Shown here in pieces: positions 19,926 through 41,640 of a stretch of 44,509 nt of DNA (its first letter is position 1; each line of letters starts with the position of its first letter). The translations under genes were made by a program, and so were the position numbers. The notes below the pieces were generated by a model. That model saw nothing but the letters and a program-made list of their open reading frames with translations, was not told where the DNA came from and made no database searches. The DNA comes from a phage. Where the stretch lies: the sequence record PZ049723.1. One strand, given 5' to 3'.

Positions 19926-21311
19926 TTAGTAGAAGTCTACAGTTGGAACAACGGCGATCGGACGAATTACTGGGAACAGGTGCGCAATTGGATAGCCCGC
20001 GGCATCGTTCATGTGGTCCACCCCAGCGGTTTTATCCGGCTCGCCTTTCTTCAGGTCGTAAACCTGCTGTTCCAGGCATTTCGCTAGTGTAGGGCATTTA
20101 TCCAGGTTGACAAAATACTGGCGCACGCCCTTCGAGTTGCACATCATCGTATTCATCGCGATCAATCGGTCTTTCACAGGTGGGTTAACACTGTCATACT
20201 CCACCTCGAAGCCCGCGTCTTCCAGTTGCGCTATATCGGACGATGATGCGTTTACAGTCTTGCGAGACTTGCCGCTGCTGTCCGGGTAAACGACGACCCG
20301 ACCGGCAGCACAATGATCGGGGTAGCGCTCCTCGATCGCCTCAATCATAGCTGGGGTATCAAACAGGTCCACAAACTCATCCACTGCGTGGATCTCGTCG
20401 CGGAACTCCTTGTTCTCGGTGATACGCTGCCGTCTGACATACACAACCGCCGCCATTTTCGTGACGTTAAAGTCCATACCGATAATCAGTGTGTCTTCGG
20501 GCTGCACTTCTTCGGTGCTGGCGTTCTCCTCACGGTTGAACATCTTGTATACTGCGCCAGACGTAAGGTTTACAAACAGGCCGTTCAAGTACGCATCAAT
20601 CAGGTTAGCCGGGTACTGACTGCGCAGCGTGTCGATAAAGTCTGCGGGCAAATGGTGGTTATCGGTAGTCTTCGCCCGGATCAAACGTTTTTGGCTATCC
20701 TTCTCCACTTCGAAAATCTGGTACATCGCCCGGTAGCCTTCCGGGGTGGACACGATGACGAACTGGCGGACAAAGCCCGCACGCAGACGACCGAGCAATT
20801 TGTGATACGCCGCCAGCGCAACGTCTTGCTTCGTGGTATCGAACTCGTCGGCAACAATCCACGCGGCGTTAACCCCGATCAGGCGGGTATAGTTCTCCAT
20901 TGACTCACAGATAACGCGGGTCCATTTGCCTTTCACAAGCACGTTATAGATCTTGTCCTGCTTATTGAACTTCCACCGGAAGCCCGCCTCGTCGAATGCC
21001 TTTTCCAATTCCGGGTACATGATTTTAACCAGAAGTGGAATAGTCGGTTCTGTCACGATGCCATCATGACCGGGGTTCAGTGTTAAAAGCTGGATAACCT
21101 TTCTCGCCGCAACCCATGACTTACCGCCACCGAAGCCGGAACACAGGCCGAGGATTTTAGTCTTCGTGTCGCGCAGTAGTTCCACCTGGTGGGGAAGGCA
21201 ATCAGGCTGGTAAAGGCGGACGGCCTGCGCAACGCGTGTCGGACGCGGCGGTCGGTTTCGCTTTGCGATCGCTCGTTCAAGGGCGCGATGTTCTGCCGCA
21301 TAGTTACGCAT
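19926..21311 (-). CDS. Terminase large subunit
   Basis: 461 aa; Walker A-like GFGGGKS near N-terminus, Walker B-like VADEFD, C-terminal nuclease-like acidic residues; ATG at 21311. Confidence 0.85.
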   Translation of the reverse strand: MRNYAAEHRALERAIAKRNRPPRPTRVAQAVRLYQPDCLPHQVELLRDTKTKILGLCSGFGGGKSWVAARKVIQLLTLNPGHDGIVTEPTIPLLVKIMYPELEKAFDEAGFRWKFNKQDKIYNVLVKGKWTRVICESMENYTRLIGVNAAWIVADEFDTTKQDVALAAYHKLLGRLRAGFVRQFVIVSTPEGYRAMYQIFEVEKDSQKRLIRAKTTDNHHLPADFIDTLRSQYPANLIDAYLNGLFVNLTSGAVYKMFNREENASTEEVQPEDTLIIGMDFNVTKMAAVVYVRRQRITENKEFRDEIHAVDEFVDLFDTPAMIEAIEERYPDHCAAGRVVVYPDSSGKSRKTVNASSSDIAQLEDAGFEVEYDSVNPPVKDRLIAMNTMMCNSKGVRQYFVNLDKCPTLAKCLEQQVYDLKKGEPDKTAGVDHMNDAAGYPIAHLFPVIRPIAVVPTVDFY

Positions 21312-21862
21312 TAATCACCCTGGCCTTTGCCGGTAGGTTCCACAACGACGTCGCCGTTATCATCTTCGTCGTCGTCCAGCGGCACATCGTCCCGGACGCC
21401 GTGGTTTGCTTTAAGCAGGAACGTAGCGAAGCCTGCCGCGATGGTCACGCCGCCAGCTTCCATCAGGAAAGTTTTCTGTAGCTCCATAGCGTCCGCCATC
21501 GCCTCGGCGAACTCCTCATGCGCACGCGCCCAGCGATACAGGCAAGCTACGCCCACGCCGATTTCCGCGGCAAATCGACCGAAGGTTGGCATTTTGTTGC
21601 GGGGGATTACTTGCGCAGCGCCTTTATCGGAGTAGTTTACCTGCCAGGCGTCGGCGTCGGCAAAATAGCGGCGAAGCTGGTCGCAGTAAACGGATCGGTA
21701 GTCAGTAGGGCGCCCACATTTGCCGCCTTTACGACGCTTGCCATATTCGATCTCAGGTCCGAGATTGGTATGTTCTGTTTGCTCGCCTGGTTTACGGCGC
21801 GGGGTTACTGCCACTCGTCCGTCCAGTTTGGCGCGTCGGCCCTTAACTTTGATTTCTGCCAT
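21311..21862 (-). CDS. Terminase small subunit (putative)
   Basis: ATG at 21862 (MAEIKVKG...); 183 aa basic protein immediately upstream of large terminase with overlapping stop/start. Confidence 0.5.
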   Translation of the reverse strand: MAEIKVKGRRAKLDGRVAVTPRRKPGEQTEHTNLGPEIEYGKRRKGGKCGRPTDYRSVYCDQLRRYFADADAWQVNYSDKGAAQVIPRNKMPTFGRFAAEIGVGVACLYRWARAHEEFAEAMADAMELQKTFLMEAGGVTIAAGFATFLLKANHGVRDDVPLDDDEDDNGDVVVEPTGKGQGD

Positions 21863-21992
21863 GATATAAGCCCTTTTGTGCATATGCGCCGACCATCGGC
21901 AACATAGGAGACGGCCCTGCCATCTAATTGGGATTATAACAGGCACAAAAAAGCCCACCAAATCGGCAGGCTGGGAGGGTTACGGGTCGCCG

Positions 21993-23135
21993 TTACTTCA
22001 ACATTTCCGGGCTAATGGTTAAGCGCGCTACTTCGCCGTAGTTGGCGCTGTAGGTGATGACGTTTGCGCTGCGGCCGGACATCCAACCGCCACGACTGGC
22101 GTAGGCGTCTTTCGCTGCGAGCGTCCTGTGCTGTTCAACAATCATGTTGCGGGATTCAACAATCTTCTGGTGGTGCAAATGGCCTACGTGCGCGTAGCTG
22201 TATTCGCTCGACCCGAACGCCTGTCTGAATTTAGCGATCATAACCTGCTCGATAACATCGAATCGCGCTTTGTGCCCGTGGTGGAAGAACAGCGTTGTTT
22301 TACCGTGCTGCACCATTTTGTAGACGTCCGGGGACGTATCCACATCGACGCGCGGCTCGTTCTCATACAGAGTATTGAACATCTCCGCCAGCCAGATCAT
22401 GCCAGACTCGTCATGATTACCCTGGACGATTAGAAGTTTGACTTTGTGGTGTTTTTGCAGCGCCAGCTCCACCACGTTGCGCACCATGCGAATCATGTAG
22501 CGGACCAGCTTCTGGTATCGGGTATCCGCGTCCAGGATGTGACCGCTGGCAGGTGTGACGGCATCAAGGCTATCAAAGTGCGCCATATCACCGAGGATAT
22601 TAATTACGGCAGTGCCTGCGTCCGGTGCGCGTGCAAAGGCTTCGACAAACCAGCGGTAGAACAGGTCTTCGGCAATCGCCATATCCCAGTCCTCGCCAGT
22701 CTCCTCGCCCCAGGCCAGCATCCCCAGGTGGAAGTCTGACACGGTGTACAGGTTGAGTAGGTCAAGTGCCTGGATCGGTACTGGCGGGGAGCTTACTGGT
22801 GCTGCCGGTGTGATTTCGCTGTTCATGCCCTCGACAACGGCGCGCATTGCTTCAAGCTGGCGCTCTTTGTCCTGCTCTGTGATAACCCACGACATGACCT
22901 CTTCGCCATTGCCACGCACCAGGGCGGAGACACGCTTCACGCCGAAGCCATCGGCAACGCGCTTACGGATTACGGCATCATTACCGTGACCAATACCTTT
23001 CTTCGACAGGCGGGCTTTGCGCATGTAGACGTTTCGTAGGGAAAGGCCGTACTTCTTCGCAATCTCTTTCGCGGTAGTGCCGGATTGCAACTCGGCGATC
23101 AATTGCTCGTCGGTGATTTTAGTTTGCGGGTGCAT
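21993..23135 (-). CDS. HTH domain fused to calcineurin-like metallophosphoesterase
   Basis: 380 aa; N-terminal helix-turn-helix (TAKEIAKKYGLSLRNV); phosphoesterase motifs SDFH, GDMAHFD, GNHDE, HHGH, GHLHH; ATG at 23135. Confidence 0.7.
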   Translation of the reverse strand: MHPQTKITDEQLIAELQSGTTAKEIAKKYGLSLRNVYMRKARLSKKGIGHGNDAVIRKRVADGFGVKRVSALVRGNGEEVMSWVITEQDKERQLEAMRAVVEGMNSEITPAAPVSSPPVPIQALDLLNLYTVSDFHLGMLAWGEETGEDWDMAIAEDLFYRWFVEAFARAPDAGTAVINILGDMAHFDSLDAVTPASGHILDADTRYQKLVRYMIRMVRNVVELALQKHHKVKLLIVQGNHDESGMIWLAEMFNTLYENEPRVDVDTSPDVYKMVQHGKTTLFFHHGHKARFDVIEQVMIAKFRQAFGSSEYSYAHVGHLHHQKIVESRNMIVEQHRTLAAKDAYASRGGWMSGRSANVITYSANYGEVARLTISPEMLK

Positions 23136-23196
23136 ATTAATTCACTTCCAGATTATGGGACCGAGGACAATATACCACGGCCCATATTGTGGCGGG

Positions 23197-23277
23197 TTAT
23201 AGCAATTCGCAAATAACCATACCGATAAACGCTGCGGCGGACCAGATTGCCAATACCCAAATATCACTACGTGCCAT
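23197..23277 (-). CDS. Small hydrophobic peptide (26 aa), speculative
   Basis: ATG at 23277 preceded by GAGGAG RBS; MARSDIWVLAIWSAAAFIGMVICELL; between promoter-like sequence and phosphoesterase gene. Confidence 0.25.
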   Translation of the reverse strand: MARSDIWVLAIWSAAAFIGMVICELL

Positions 23278-23307: not shown

Positions 23308-23337
23308 AGTATGGTCTGATAGTTGGTTGCAAGTCAA
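23308..23337 (-). promoter_or_regulatory. Promoter-like sequence at head of the structural operon
   Basis: Minus strand TTGACT (23337-23332), TGCAACCAA motif, about 18-bp spacer, CATACT (23313-23308); follows the lysis-operon terminator. Confidence 0.4.
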
Positions 23338-23340
23338 GCA

Positions 23341-23366
23341 ATAAAAAGCCCGGAATTAACCGGGCT
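23341..23366 (-). terminator. Rho-independent terminator after lysis-region operon
   Basis: agcccgg-aattaa-ccgggct 7-bp stem followed on minus strand by TTTTTAT. Confidence 0.6.
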
Positions 23367-23373
23367 GGTGGTT

Positions 23374-23787
23374 TTATTCTTCTGCTTCCGTTACGGTGAA
23401 GATGGCGGACGCCATTGCCCCGCTACCATCGGATGCCACCCAAAAGATGTGAGCGCTACCTGCCGTTTGGGCTGTGATTTCGCCGGTAGTCTGATCGATT
23501 GCCGCACAGGCAGGATTCGACGACACCCACTTCCCTGCCTTGTTAGTTGCGTCGGATGGCAGGACGGCAACAGAAGCGGAGGCCTTCGCACCAACTGCGG
23601 CTGACACTGGAGTGAGGGTTACGGTCGCACTTGCTACCGGCTTACTTTCTGGCACGCTAGGCAGCTTCGCGTCAAAGACGCCCGCATGGCTGATAGTGTC
23701 CGCAATAATAGCGCGTGCGCCTGGGTCTTTGGTTTTAGCCAGCGCGGCGAGCGCGTCGGCGTTATGATCAAGAATACTTTTTAACAT
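23374..23787 (-). CDS. Bacterial Ig-like (Big_2-type) domain protein
   Basis: 137 aa; Ala/Ser/Thr/Val-rich beta-rich region whose spacing resembles Big_2 domains; last gene before terminator. Confidence 0.45.
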   Translation of the reverse strand: MLKSILDHNADALAALAKTKDPGARAIIADTISHAGVFDAKLPSVPESKPVASATVTLTPVSAAVGAKASASVAVLPSDATNKAGKWVSSNPACAAIDQTTGEITAQTAGSAHIFWVASDGSGAMASAIFTVTEAEE

Positions 23788-40968: not shown

Positions 40969-41173
40969 TCGCAGTATGCGCGTCGTGGACGAAATTGCTA
41001 AACGCTACCAAATCAACCCGCGGGAGAACAAAGTGCGGCGTTGCAGCCGCCCGGAGCAATTACTGGGTATGGACCTTACCGGTTGGCTTGTAATGACCGC
41101 CCGTTGTCATCTTGTGTGTGACACGTTTTCCGCCCGTATTGTTCGTATGAATCTTATTGAGGAATTGAAATGA
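40949..41173 (+). CDS. Hypothetical protein
   Basis: ATG at 40949 (track ORF begins at GTG 40940); 74 aa; overlaps Dam-like gene end. Confidence 0.35.
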   Translation: MNILIVDRSMRVVDEIAKRYQINPRENKVRRCSRPEQLLGMDLTGWLVMTARCHLVCDTFSARIVRMNLIEELK

Positions 41174-41640
41174 AATTACTGATTTGTGATCTGGATGGCG
41201 TTATTAACGGTTCAAGTGATGCGCGCGCCGACCTGGTGCCGGGGATAAAAACGAAATCAACATTTTGGGCGAAGTGGCACAAAGCGCACGTACGCGAAGA
41301 CCTGAACATGGATATGCTGCCGCTACTGCGCATGTACAAAGAGCAAGGCTTCGAGATCGCGTATCTGACCAACCGGCAGCGCGAATGTTGGGACACCACC
41401 GCCGAGCAATTGGAGGTCTTCCCCGTAGGTCGATTGTTCATGCGCCACATGCTGGACGACACCCCGCCGCCAGAGTTTAAGGCGTGCGCCGTTTTCAAAA
41501 TGGTCTGCTATGCGGACGTGTCGGAACTGGTCATCATTGAAGACTGTCCGAAGAACATCGCGGCAATTCGTCGGGCGTGTGGCGATCTGGTCCCGAAAAT
41601 TTACGCAATAAACGTTGCAAAATTCACTTGCAACCAATAG
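41170..41640 (+). CDS. HAD-superfamily phosphatase
   Basis: 156 aa; N-terminal HAD motif I ICDLDGVI; GAGGAA RBS. Confidence 0.6.
   Translation: MKLLICDLDGVINGSSDARADLVPGIKTKSTFWAKWHKAHVREDLNMDMLPLLRMYKEQGFEIAYLTNRQRECWDTTAEQLEVFPVGRLFMRHMLDDTPPPEFKACAVFKMVCYADVSELVIIEDCPKNIAAIRRACGDLVPKIYAINVAKFTCNQ

Follow-up and report, generated by a model that had tools for sequence, protein, structure and literature searches.

The DNA analysed here, called the window below, is a stretch of 44,509 nucleotides from a phage (sequence record PZ049723.1). On its minus strand, at 21993..23135, lies an ORF of 380 amino acids with an ATG start, in whose product a preliminary description had recognised a helix-turn-helix (HTH) fused to a calcineurin-like metallophosphoesterase (MPE). 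The question raised by this locus is which kind of MPE the phage encodes, and what an enzyme of this superfamily would do when joined to a DNA-binding domain. A regulator, a nucleotide or second-messenger phosphodiesterase and a DNA-end processing enzyme had all been put forward. We have examined the protein, its family, its transcriptional setting and the neighbourhoods of related genes in other phages.

Results

An HTH joined to a divergent metallophosphoesterase

The AlphaFold2 model of the full-length protein was confident (pLDDT 89, pTM 0.75) and placed, in order, an HTH at residues 9-45, a flexible stretch, a β-hairpin at residues 64-88, a helix at residues 90-107 and the α/β sandwich of the MPE fold at residues 123-380. 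The MPE core ends at residue 380, and no extra C-terminal domain follows the sandwich in this model. Conservation was assessed in an alignment of 36 family members with identities as low as 32%. W83, in the β-hairpin of the linker, is near-invariant in this alignment, and structural comparison of the linker (β-hairpin and helix) gave no informative match. The MPE domain also contains a conserved, family-specific insert, VTPxSGHxLDADxR, located after motif II at residues ~193-206.

The set of motifs that defines the superfamily (DxH, GDxxD/H, GNH(D/E), H and GHxH) was found complete and in the right order, as SDFH (residues 133-136), GDMAHFD (182-188), GNHDE (239-243), HHGH (285-288) and GHLHH (318-322). 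Nine residues, D134, H136, G182, D183, N240, H241, H286, G318 and H321, are invariant in 36/36 sequences, while conservation reaches at least 90% at H186, H288 and H319. The five motifs quoted in the preliminary description are thus real and not due to chance, since the metal-binding and catalytic residues are invariant across the 36 sequences, and the domain composition proposed there, an HTH and an MPE with an intact active site, was correct. Pfam scores were close to or under the cut-offs: the full-length protein reached 20.3 bits with Metallophos (cut-off 21.5) and 22.8 with Metallophos_2 (cut-off 27), and the MPE domain alone scored 21.5 with Metallophos, against the cut-off of 21.5. On these profile scores, the HTH-MPE family is a divergent one within the calcineurin-like MPE superfamily.

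When the window protein was searched alone, the matches to GerE and HTH_28 fell under the Pfam gathering scores. A profile built on residues 1-122 matched GerE (E = 3.6e-4), together with many LuxR-type response regulators and sigma factors, and single relatives matched Sigma70_r4_2 at 2e-10 and GerE at 5e-9. The predicted N-terminal HTH of the LuxR/sigma-region-4 type is genuine, and it is at the level of the family that it becomes clear. Residues 1-60 are basic (13 K+R vs 5 D+E), and the HTH would be expected to bind DNA. It is also the least conserved region of the protein, with a median identity to the window protein of 25% over residues 1-60, vs 45% over the MPE domain. No similarity was found between the N-terminal region and the small terminase subunit (TerS) of the same phage.

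A core gene of Dhillonvirus and a member of a large phage family

The 6 kb of DNA around the gene are 90-94% identical to E. coli siphophages of the genus Dhillonvirus, such as PTXU06, SECphi18 and Gluttony. The window belongs to this genus, and HTH-MPE genes nearly identical to its own have been deposited before. The protein matched PHROG 704 end to end (E = 4e-161, residues 5-380, profile positions 2-390 of 390); the name of this PHROG, 'DNA repair exonuclease', is a computational annotation. Identity reaches 99% with a protein of phage Sponge and 44% with gp61 of phage Rtp, annotated in GenBank as 'highly similar to gp16 of phage T1', and the T1 gp16/Rtp gp61 family has the same length and architecture as the window protein. 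Other members are labelled in GenBank as 'calcineurin-like phosphoesterase' or 'HTH and metallophosphatase domains containing protein'. Compared with members of PHROG 704, nothing structural sets the window protein apart and only the genomic position differs, the gene lying upstream of terS in Dhillonvirus. NCBIfam and PADLOC searches matched nothing useful. No biochemical, genetic or other functional study of any member of the T1 gp16/PHROG 704 family was found in the literature; a preprint on PUA-Cal-HAD concerns a host defence MPE and was set aside as not relevant.

The family proved to be widely distributed. Matches were obtained by tblastn in 2,061 phage records, 1,670 of which cover at least 80% of the query, and the relatives came from Drexlerviridae (Rtp among them), Webervirus, Jerseyvirus, Jedunavirus and a Pantoea podophage, as well as from Vibrio Ackermannviridae, Campylobacter phages and Rhizobium phages. 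When 1.8 billion cluster representatives were searched exhaustively, with relatives counted as 50%-identity representatives, 4,644 were recovered at E <= 1e-3, and 1,125 with the stricter limit of E <= 1e-30. Since the best 150 relatives are almost all 370-420 amino acids long and full-length matches are abundant, the association of HTH and MPE is the standard architecture of the family. The suggestion that the fusion is unusual in comparison with stand-alone phage phosphatases does not hold, the two domains together being the norm in a large, catalogued phage family.

An MPE protein at least 90% identical to that of the window is present in 155 phage records, vs 157 records with a matching TerL, and by these counts the HTH-MPE gene is a core gene of the genus Dhillonvirus. 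A free-standing homing endonuclease or a selfish cassette, an idea prompted by the variable location of the gene and by HNH neighbours, was rejected because the presence of a core gene such as this one is not sporadic among close relatives. The feature is real and already catalogued: it is an ordinary core gene of its genus, with an existing annotation.

A putative transcription unit separate from the packaging genes

The gene adjoins the small terminase gene, as previously noted: terS is the next gene downstream on the same strand, with a match to PHROG 3064. Terminator-like hairpins lie on both sides of the HTH-MPE gene (Table 1). On the upstream side, the order is endolysin gene, Ig-domain gene, hairpin, and the fold of this hairpin is far better than that of shuffled sequence (z = -3.95), whereas the one between the HTH-MPE stop codon and terS folds no better than shuffled sequence (z = -1.1). 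Both are kept in SECphi18; in its downstream stem, a G-C pair replaces the G-U of the window. The TTGACT-18 nt-CATACT site is fully kept in two other Dhillonviruses, and the motif TGGTATATT is kept also in SECphi18, which is devoid of the 26-codon ORF. The promoter and terminator assignments are all consensus matches. A search for operator-like repeats near the MPE gene recovered only weak imperfect palindromes.

Because the hairpins bracket the MPE gene and promoter-like signals lie between them, we regard it as a self-contained unit and not as the first gene of the packaging operon. The conserved terminator-like hairpins argue for a predicted transcription unit of its own. The preliminary description had the gene opening the packaging/structural operon, a reading that is not supported, given the hairpin separating its stop codon from terS and the second one upstream, both of which are found in SECphi18.

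Table 1. Features of the HTH-MPE gene and its surroundings in the window (all on the minus strand).
Feature	Coordinates	Strand	Remarks
Small terminase gene (terS), downstream neighbour	21311..21862	-	likely ATG at 21862; matches PHROG 3064
Intrinsic-terminator-like hairpin + T-run	21952..21972	-	21 nt past the stop codon, before terS
HTH-MPE gene	21993..23135	-	380 aa + stop; T1 gp16/Rtp gp61 orthologue, PHROG 704 member
Calcineurin-like metallophosphoesterase (MPE) domain, aa 123-380	21996..22769	-	five motifs
Family-specific β-hairpin (aa 64-88) and helix (aa 90-107)	22815..22946	-	linker from HTH to catalytic domain
Tri-helical HTH, aa 9-45, LuxR/GerE / sigma-70 region 4 / resolvase type	23001..23111	-	
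Extended -10-like motif TGGTATATT	23169..23177	-	~35 nt 5' of the MPE ATG; consensus match only
Unannotated hydrophobic 26-codon ORF (MARSDIWVLAIWSAAAFIGMVICELL)	23197..23277	-	strong SD; upstream of the MPE gene, in the same putative unit
Sigma-70 promoter-like site TTGACT-18 nt-CATACT	23308..23337	-	consensus match only
Intrinsic-terminator-like hairpin + T-run	23347..23366	-	ends the upstream lysis/Ig-domain unit

Fold and motifs resemble those of nuclease-type metallophosphoesterases

Structure comparison placed the predicted fold nearest to DP1, the small subunit of PolD, and then to Mre11/SbcD, with PPP phosphatases far lower. The scores were 15.0 for T. maritima Mre11, 14.6 for S. aureus SbcD, 13.8 for MJ0936, 13.6 for LpxH, 13.5 for P. 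furiosus Mre11 and 12.1 for the cyclic-nucleotide phosphodiesterase Rv0805, against 8.4-9.1 for PP1, PP5 and calcineurin. The ranking in favour of nuclease-type MPEs was also obtained with Foldseek.

Searched singly against the sequences of solved structures, the protein gave only spurious matches to repeat proteins. When full-length and MPE-only profiles were compared with PDB sequences, the MPE matches were non-significant, at E 0.6 or worse; among solved MPE structures, the MPE-only profile retrieved only T. maritima Mre11/SbcD and the Nuclease MPE of P. putida (E 0.6-2, non-significant). The motifs line up unambiguously with those of these two nucleases, as DxH(L/I)G for motif I and GD(F/L)LH for motif II. 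The PPP signatures GDxHG, GDxVDRG and GNHE are absent from the window protein. Profile searches had been proposed for separating the MPE families; the motifs and the histidines associated with DNase activity (see below) point to the nuclease type, with E-values against PDB sequences of 0.6 or worse. A nuclease is favoured and a protein phosphatase disfavoured because of the fold neighbours, the motif line-up and the lack of PPP signatures. The predicted structure, in short, favours a nuclease-type MPE; a small-molecule phosphodiesterase is less likely.

Comparison with characterised nucleases and phage metallophosphoesterases

In an alignment to T. maritima Mre11/SbcD, the window protein has the motifs DxHLG, GDxxH and GNHD in common with that enzyme. 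It differs by the absence of the C-terminal capping domain, the alignment covering about 188 of 362 T. maritima Mre11 residues, and by the presence of an extra N-terminal HTH and of the family-specific insert after motif II. No Rad50/SbcC SMC-like ATPase partner is annotated in the 93%-identical genome of SECphi18 or in the neighbourhoods examined, and curated HMMs gave no family-level match to SbcD/Mre11 in NCBIfam or Pfam. On these three grounds (capping domain, partner gene and curated-model match), membership of the Mre11/SbcD family was ruled out. With DP1 of archaeal PolD, a 3'-5' proofreading exonuclease, identity is 10-15% and the biological setting differs; neither a DP2 partner nor an OB-fold was identified.

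The window protein resembles the P. putida Nuclease MPE studied by the Shuman laboratory, a DNA endonuclease, in being stand-alone and without a capping domain. In the P. putida enzyme, His81 (in GDFLH) and His113 (in GNHD) are essential for DNA cleavage and not for the hydrolysis of bis-pNPP (PMC7826289). His81 aligns to H186, at least 90% conserved in the family, and His113 to the invariant H241.

Recent work links two unrelated phage MPEs to the destruction of the host genome. The MPE gp48 of mycobacteriophage A10ZJ24 degrades linear, plasmid and genomic DNA in vitro, and it disrupts the integrity of the host genome and so blunts host defence (PMC12287305). Among the pre-early genes of T5, A1 alone is both necessary and sufficient for the degradation of host DNA, and its product is a predicted metallophosphatase that resembles double-strand-break-repair nucleases and polymerase proofreading subunits (bioRxiv 10.64898/2026.04.02.716235). 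The same two types of structural neighbours were found for the window protein, which also has the extended motif III, NHDxxxSxWL, in common with T5 A1, and some T5 A1 relatives carry an N-terminal HTH too, at residues ~8-42. T5 A1 differs by its length of 556 amino acids and by the location of its MPE motifs in the C-terminal half, and A10ZJ24 gp48 by the absence of an N-terminal extension, the Asp of motif I being residue 10.

Homology to T5 A1, which belongs to a different PHROG (PHROG 1745), was assessed with a single sequence and with a 24-sequence profile; the hhalign match was limited to 22 columns, with a probability of 31%. Since this match is local and confined to motif III, orthology with T5 A1 was ruled out, and we consider A1 as an analogue within the superfamily and not as a demonstrable orthologue. 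Neither T5 A1 nor A10ZJ24 gp48 is an orthologue of the window protein; both are stand-alone phage MPEs implicated in host-DNA destruction. A role of the window protein in degrading host DNA is an argument by analogy, because homology to T5 A1 is not demonstrable beyond the level of the superfamily.

Genomic neighbourhoods across lineages

Neighbouring genes were scored in 80 related loci from viral contigs, fetched with a 7-sequence alignment. Among relatives at least 90% identical, TerS was encoded within 300 bp downstream in all five loci with enough flank. At 70-89% identity, a terminase gene was nearby in none of the 33 loci, and an opposite-strand tape-measure gene was located upstream in 25 of them; in Bas76 and Kenya-K22, the gene forms an opposite-strand island within the tail module. 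Below 60% identity, TerS was never closer than 300 bp, and 10 of 39 loci had a TerL gene 1.3-3 kb downstream, in the same orientation. A functional tie to the terminase, as might be read from the position in the window, is not borne out, TerS adjacency (<=300 bp) being confined to the group with at least 90% identity among the 80 loci scored. The idea of a terminase accessory factor is unsupported because this adjacency is specific to the genus and a terminator-like hairpin intervenes.

Other lineages gave a different picture of the company that the gene keeps. In Rtp, Webervirus and T1-like phages, it closes an operon with helicase and VRR-NUC genes, ahead of the lysis genes. In the Vibrio phage VAP7 (Ackermannviridae) it adjoins a primase gene. 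In the Pantoea podophage it is placed between the gene for endonuclease VII and those for a phosphatase, a dNMP kinase and a DNA ligase, and an endonuclease VII gene is directly upstream also in four uncultivated viral contigs. A PNKP-type HAD 3'-phosphatase is encoded immediately downstream in 17 of the 80 loci, followed by a dNMP kinase in 14 of these 17 and then, in some, by a DNA ligase. The arrangement with the PNKP-type phosphatase is also that of Webervirus, Jedunavirus and the Pantoea phage. The phosphatases are stand-alone proteins (Pfam HAD_PNKP, E between 2e-13 and 4e-21); neighbours annotated as 'polynucleotide kinase' hold the phosphatase domain alone, and no kinase domain partner was detected. 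Beside the gene of the window phage, PNKP-type phosphatase and dNMP kinase neighbours are absent. The PNKP-type 3'-phosphatase is the one recurrent immediate partner in the 80 loci, and the gene family travels with genes of DNA and nucleotide metabolism.

Discussion

We propose, with a probability of roughly 0.6, that the HTH-MPE protein is a stand-alone, metal-dependent DNA nuclease that is tethered to DNA by its HTH; we infer DNA as the substrate, and likewise the biological role. Among the three functions initially put forward, a nuclease for the processing of DNA or DNA ends is the best supported, and a regulator or a second-messenger phosphodiesterase less well. The gene would be co-transcribed with the 26-codon ORF, which may encode a membrane peptide, as a small unit between the lysis cassette and the terminase genes. 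The LuxR/sigma-r4-type HTH, through the linker made of a β-hairpin and a helix, would keep the nuclease on DNA, and the catalytic domain, most like those of PolD DP1 and Mre11/SbcD, would cut it in a metal-dependent manner. The preferred role would be the breakdown of DNA or the processing of its ends during infection, the likeliest targets being the host chromosome or DNA ends. In other lineages, the PNKP-type 3'-phosphatase and the dNMP kinase whose genes follow the HTH-MPE gene may go on to heal or salvage the resulting products.

If the protein is a DNA nuclease, degradation or salvage of host DNA is a tentative assignment, made by analogy, and a part in recombination or replication, through the processing of phage DNA ends, is an equally tentative one. 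Breakdown of the host chromosome, which would supply nucleotide salvage and contribute to host shut-off, would fit because of the phosphatase and dNMP kinase neighbours and of the T5 and mycobacteriophage precedents. Processing of ends or branched intermediates would fit because of the helicase, VRR-NUC, endonuclease VII and primase neighbours. We consider these two roles to be about equally likely.

Other functions have to be weighed against a DNA nuclease. A phosphodiesterase acting on nucleotides or second messengers (cyclic mono-, di- or oligonucleotides, 2',3'-cyclic phosphates) could serve in anti-defence or in nucleotide catabolism, with an HTH used for another purpose such as autoregulation. 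We hold it to be unlikely: the best structural matches are nucleases, the Mre11-type motifs DxHLG and GDxxH are present, including the histidine that the P. putida MPE needs specifically for its DNase activity, and a conserved DNA-binding domain is hard to square with a small-molecule enzyme. The lack of a PADLOC match goes in the same direction, as weak evidence, given that this library models defence proteins. An RNA or DNA end-healing enzyme would work with the PNKP-type phosphatase and a ligase, and mend, as Pnkp/Hen1 or T4 Pnk/Rnl do, the breaks made by host defence nucleases. An MPE module is present in bacterial Pnkp, and the HAD_PNKP 3'-phosphatase directly downstream in 17/80 loci, with a DNA ligase in some, would suit such a function; yet the Pnkp- and lambda-type motifs GDxVDRG and GNHE are missing, PPP-like folds score low, no kinase domain partner was detected among the neighbours and the dNMP kinase suits salvage better than repair. 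End healing is, on this evidence, quite improbable. A protein phosphatase acting on Ser/Thr/Tyr, of the lambda phosphatase type, belongs to the same superfamily and would agree with five intact motifs, but GDxHG and GDxVDRG are absent and the folds of PP1, PP5 and calcineurin score 8.4-9.1, which makes it the least probable reading of all.

The remaining alternatives start from the HTH and from the position of the gene. The protein could be primarily a transcription factor controlling a middle-to-late switch or its own cassette, the MPE domain providing a sensor or accessory activity. Its HTH is of the LuxR/GerE/sigma-70 region 4 type, the gene sits at a boundary between module blocks, and an imperfect palindrome overlaps the candidate promoter just 5' of the gene. 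We nevertheless find this very doubtful, as the catalytic residues are invariant and the HTH is the least conserved part, the opposite of what would be expected from a regulator with a degenerate enzyme domain, and a conserved target motif was not found near the gene. Highly improbable, finally, is a terminase accessory or pac-site processing factor, even though an HTH with a nuclease could in principle act at pac, the gene is directly 5' of terS in 5/5 Dhillonvirus loci with enough flank and 10/39 distant loci have a same-strand TerL gene 1.3-3 kb downstream. Against it stand the conserved terminator-like hairpin between the gene and terS, the lack of a nearby terminase in 33/33 loci at 70-89% identity, 25 of which have the gene as an opposite-strand island of the tail module, the proximity of the gene to lysis and replication genes in T1, Rtp and Webervirus, and an N-terminal region without similarity to TerS.

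To come back to a DNA nuclease, a bolder and rather doubtful extension is that HTH-MPE may be the nuclease with which T1-like, Dhillonvirus, Jersey-like and many other lytic phages degrade the host chromosome. If this were true, the variable HTH would direct the nuclease to host DNA or tether it there, and HTH-MPE, the PNKP-type 3'-phosphatase and the dNMP kinase would together convert DNA to dNDP in a compact pathway of three enzymes. Functionally, the protein would be analogous to T5 A1 and gp48, and MPE nucleases would represent a general strategy of host takeover and anti-defence in phages. Such an activity would explain how small siphophages shut down their host and feed their replication, and would bear on defence systems that sense DNA damage or the products of DNA breakdown. 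The family is among the more widespread 'DNA metabolism' genes of phages, with ~2,000 sequenced phages, and its carriers include the model phages T1, Rtp and SECphi18, phages of the BASEL collection and many candidate therapeutic phages of Klebsiella, Salmonella and E. coli.

The HTH-MPE gene and its upstream region

An unannotated 26-codon ORF, preceded by a strong SD sequence (GAGAGGAG), lies close upstream of the HTH-MPE gene, with which it shares a predicted transcription unit. Its product, MARSDIWVLAIWSAAAFIGMVICELL, consists of a single hydrophobic helix. The segment of about 136 bp that carries this ORF is found in 111 phage records, mostly without annotation, and is missing from the related Dhillonvirus SECphi18. 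The ORF is intact in two further Dhillonviruses, where the changes are restricted to 6 synonymous and 3 conservative ones, a pattern that makes a genuine micro-gene probable.

An imperfect palindrome between this ORF and the MPE gene encloses an extended -10-like motif, which lies some 35 nt before the MPE start codon and is conserved, in SECphi18 too. Judged from its sequence, this site could be a promoter of the HTH-MPE gene itself, an operator, or both.

Features of the window and of related loci
Feature	Location	Strand	Remark
Unannotated 26-codon ORF	23197-23277	-	product MARSDIWVLAIWSAAAFIGMVICELL
Extended -10-like motif	23169-23177, within 23148-23192	-	TGGTATATT, conserved
Big_2 Ig-like protein gene	23374-23787	-	137 aa, domain C-terminal
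156-aa ORF	41170-41640	+	HAD acid-phosphatase match below threshold (Acid_phosphat_B, E = 3.7e-5)
HTH-MPE/3'-phosphatase/dNMP kinase module	L010 6166-7226; L003 1904-3019; L004 6175-7367
HTH-MPE island, Bas76	L008 19471-21352
HTH-MPE island, Jerseyvirus Kenya-K22	L009 4747-7682

The gene encoding the Big_2 protein sits between the endolysin gene, directly before it, and a strong terminator, an odd position for an Ig-domain "structural" protein. Residues 1-48 match PHROG 11068 (function unknown), and the SECphi18 annotation splits the counterpart region into two short pieces, each labelled "major tail protein".

Gene neighborhoods of HTH-MPE homologues

Across unrelated phage lineages, the HTH-MPE gene recurs as the first member of a three-gene module. 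The second gene encodes a stand-alone PNKP-type HAD 3'-phosphatase, for which "polynucleotide kinase" is a frequent mis-annotation, and the third a dNMP kinase. Besides the three related loci tabulated, the module is present in 14-17 of the 80 viral-contig loci (L015-L094). It is sometimes flanked by an endonuclease VII gene upstream and a DNA ligase gene downstream. The 156-aa ORF of the window, whose SECphi18 equivalent is annotated "acid phosphatase", may be the counterpart of the PNKP-type phosphatase, located away from the MPE gene.

In Bas76 and Kenya-K22, the tail-gene block contains the HTH-MPE gene as a small island on the opposite strand, adjoining the genes for the tape measure and the tail assembly chaperone. 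Since HNH and KilAC-type genes sometimes join it there, this site looks like an accessory-gene hot spot.

An N-terminal HTH is common to HTH-MPE and to relatives of the T5 host-DNA-degradation factor A1 (P0462, P0465, P0492 and P0504; 46-49% identity), in which it spans residues ~8-42 and is of the HTH_23, HTH_38, HTH_7 or CENP-B_N type. No Pfam family, HTH or other, was detectable in T5 A1 itself. The HTH of these relatives therefore suggests that the HTH+MPE combination may be a recurrent design of phage nucleases.
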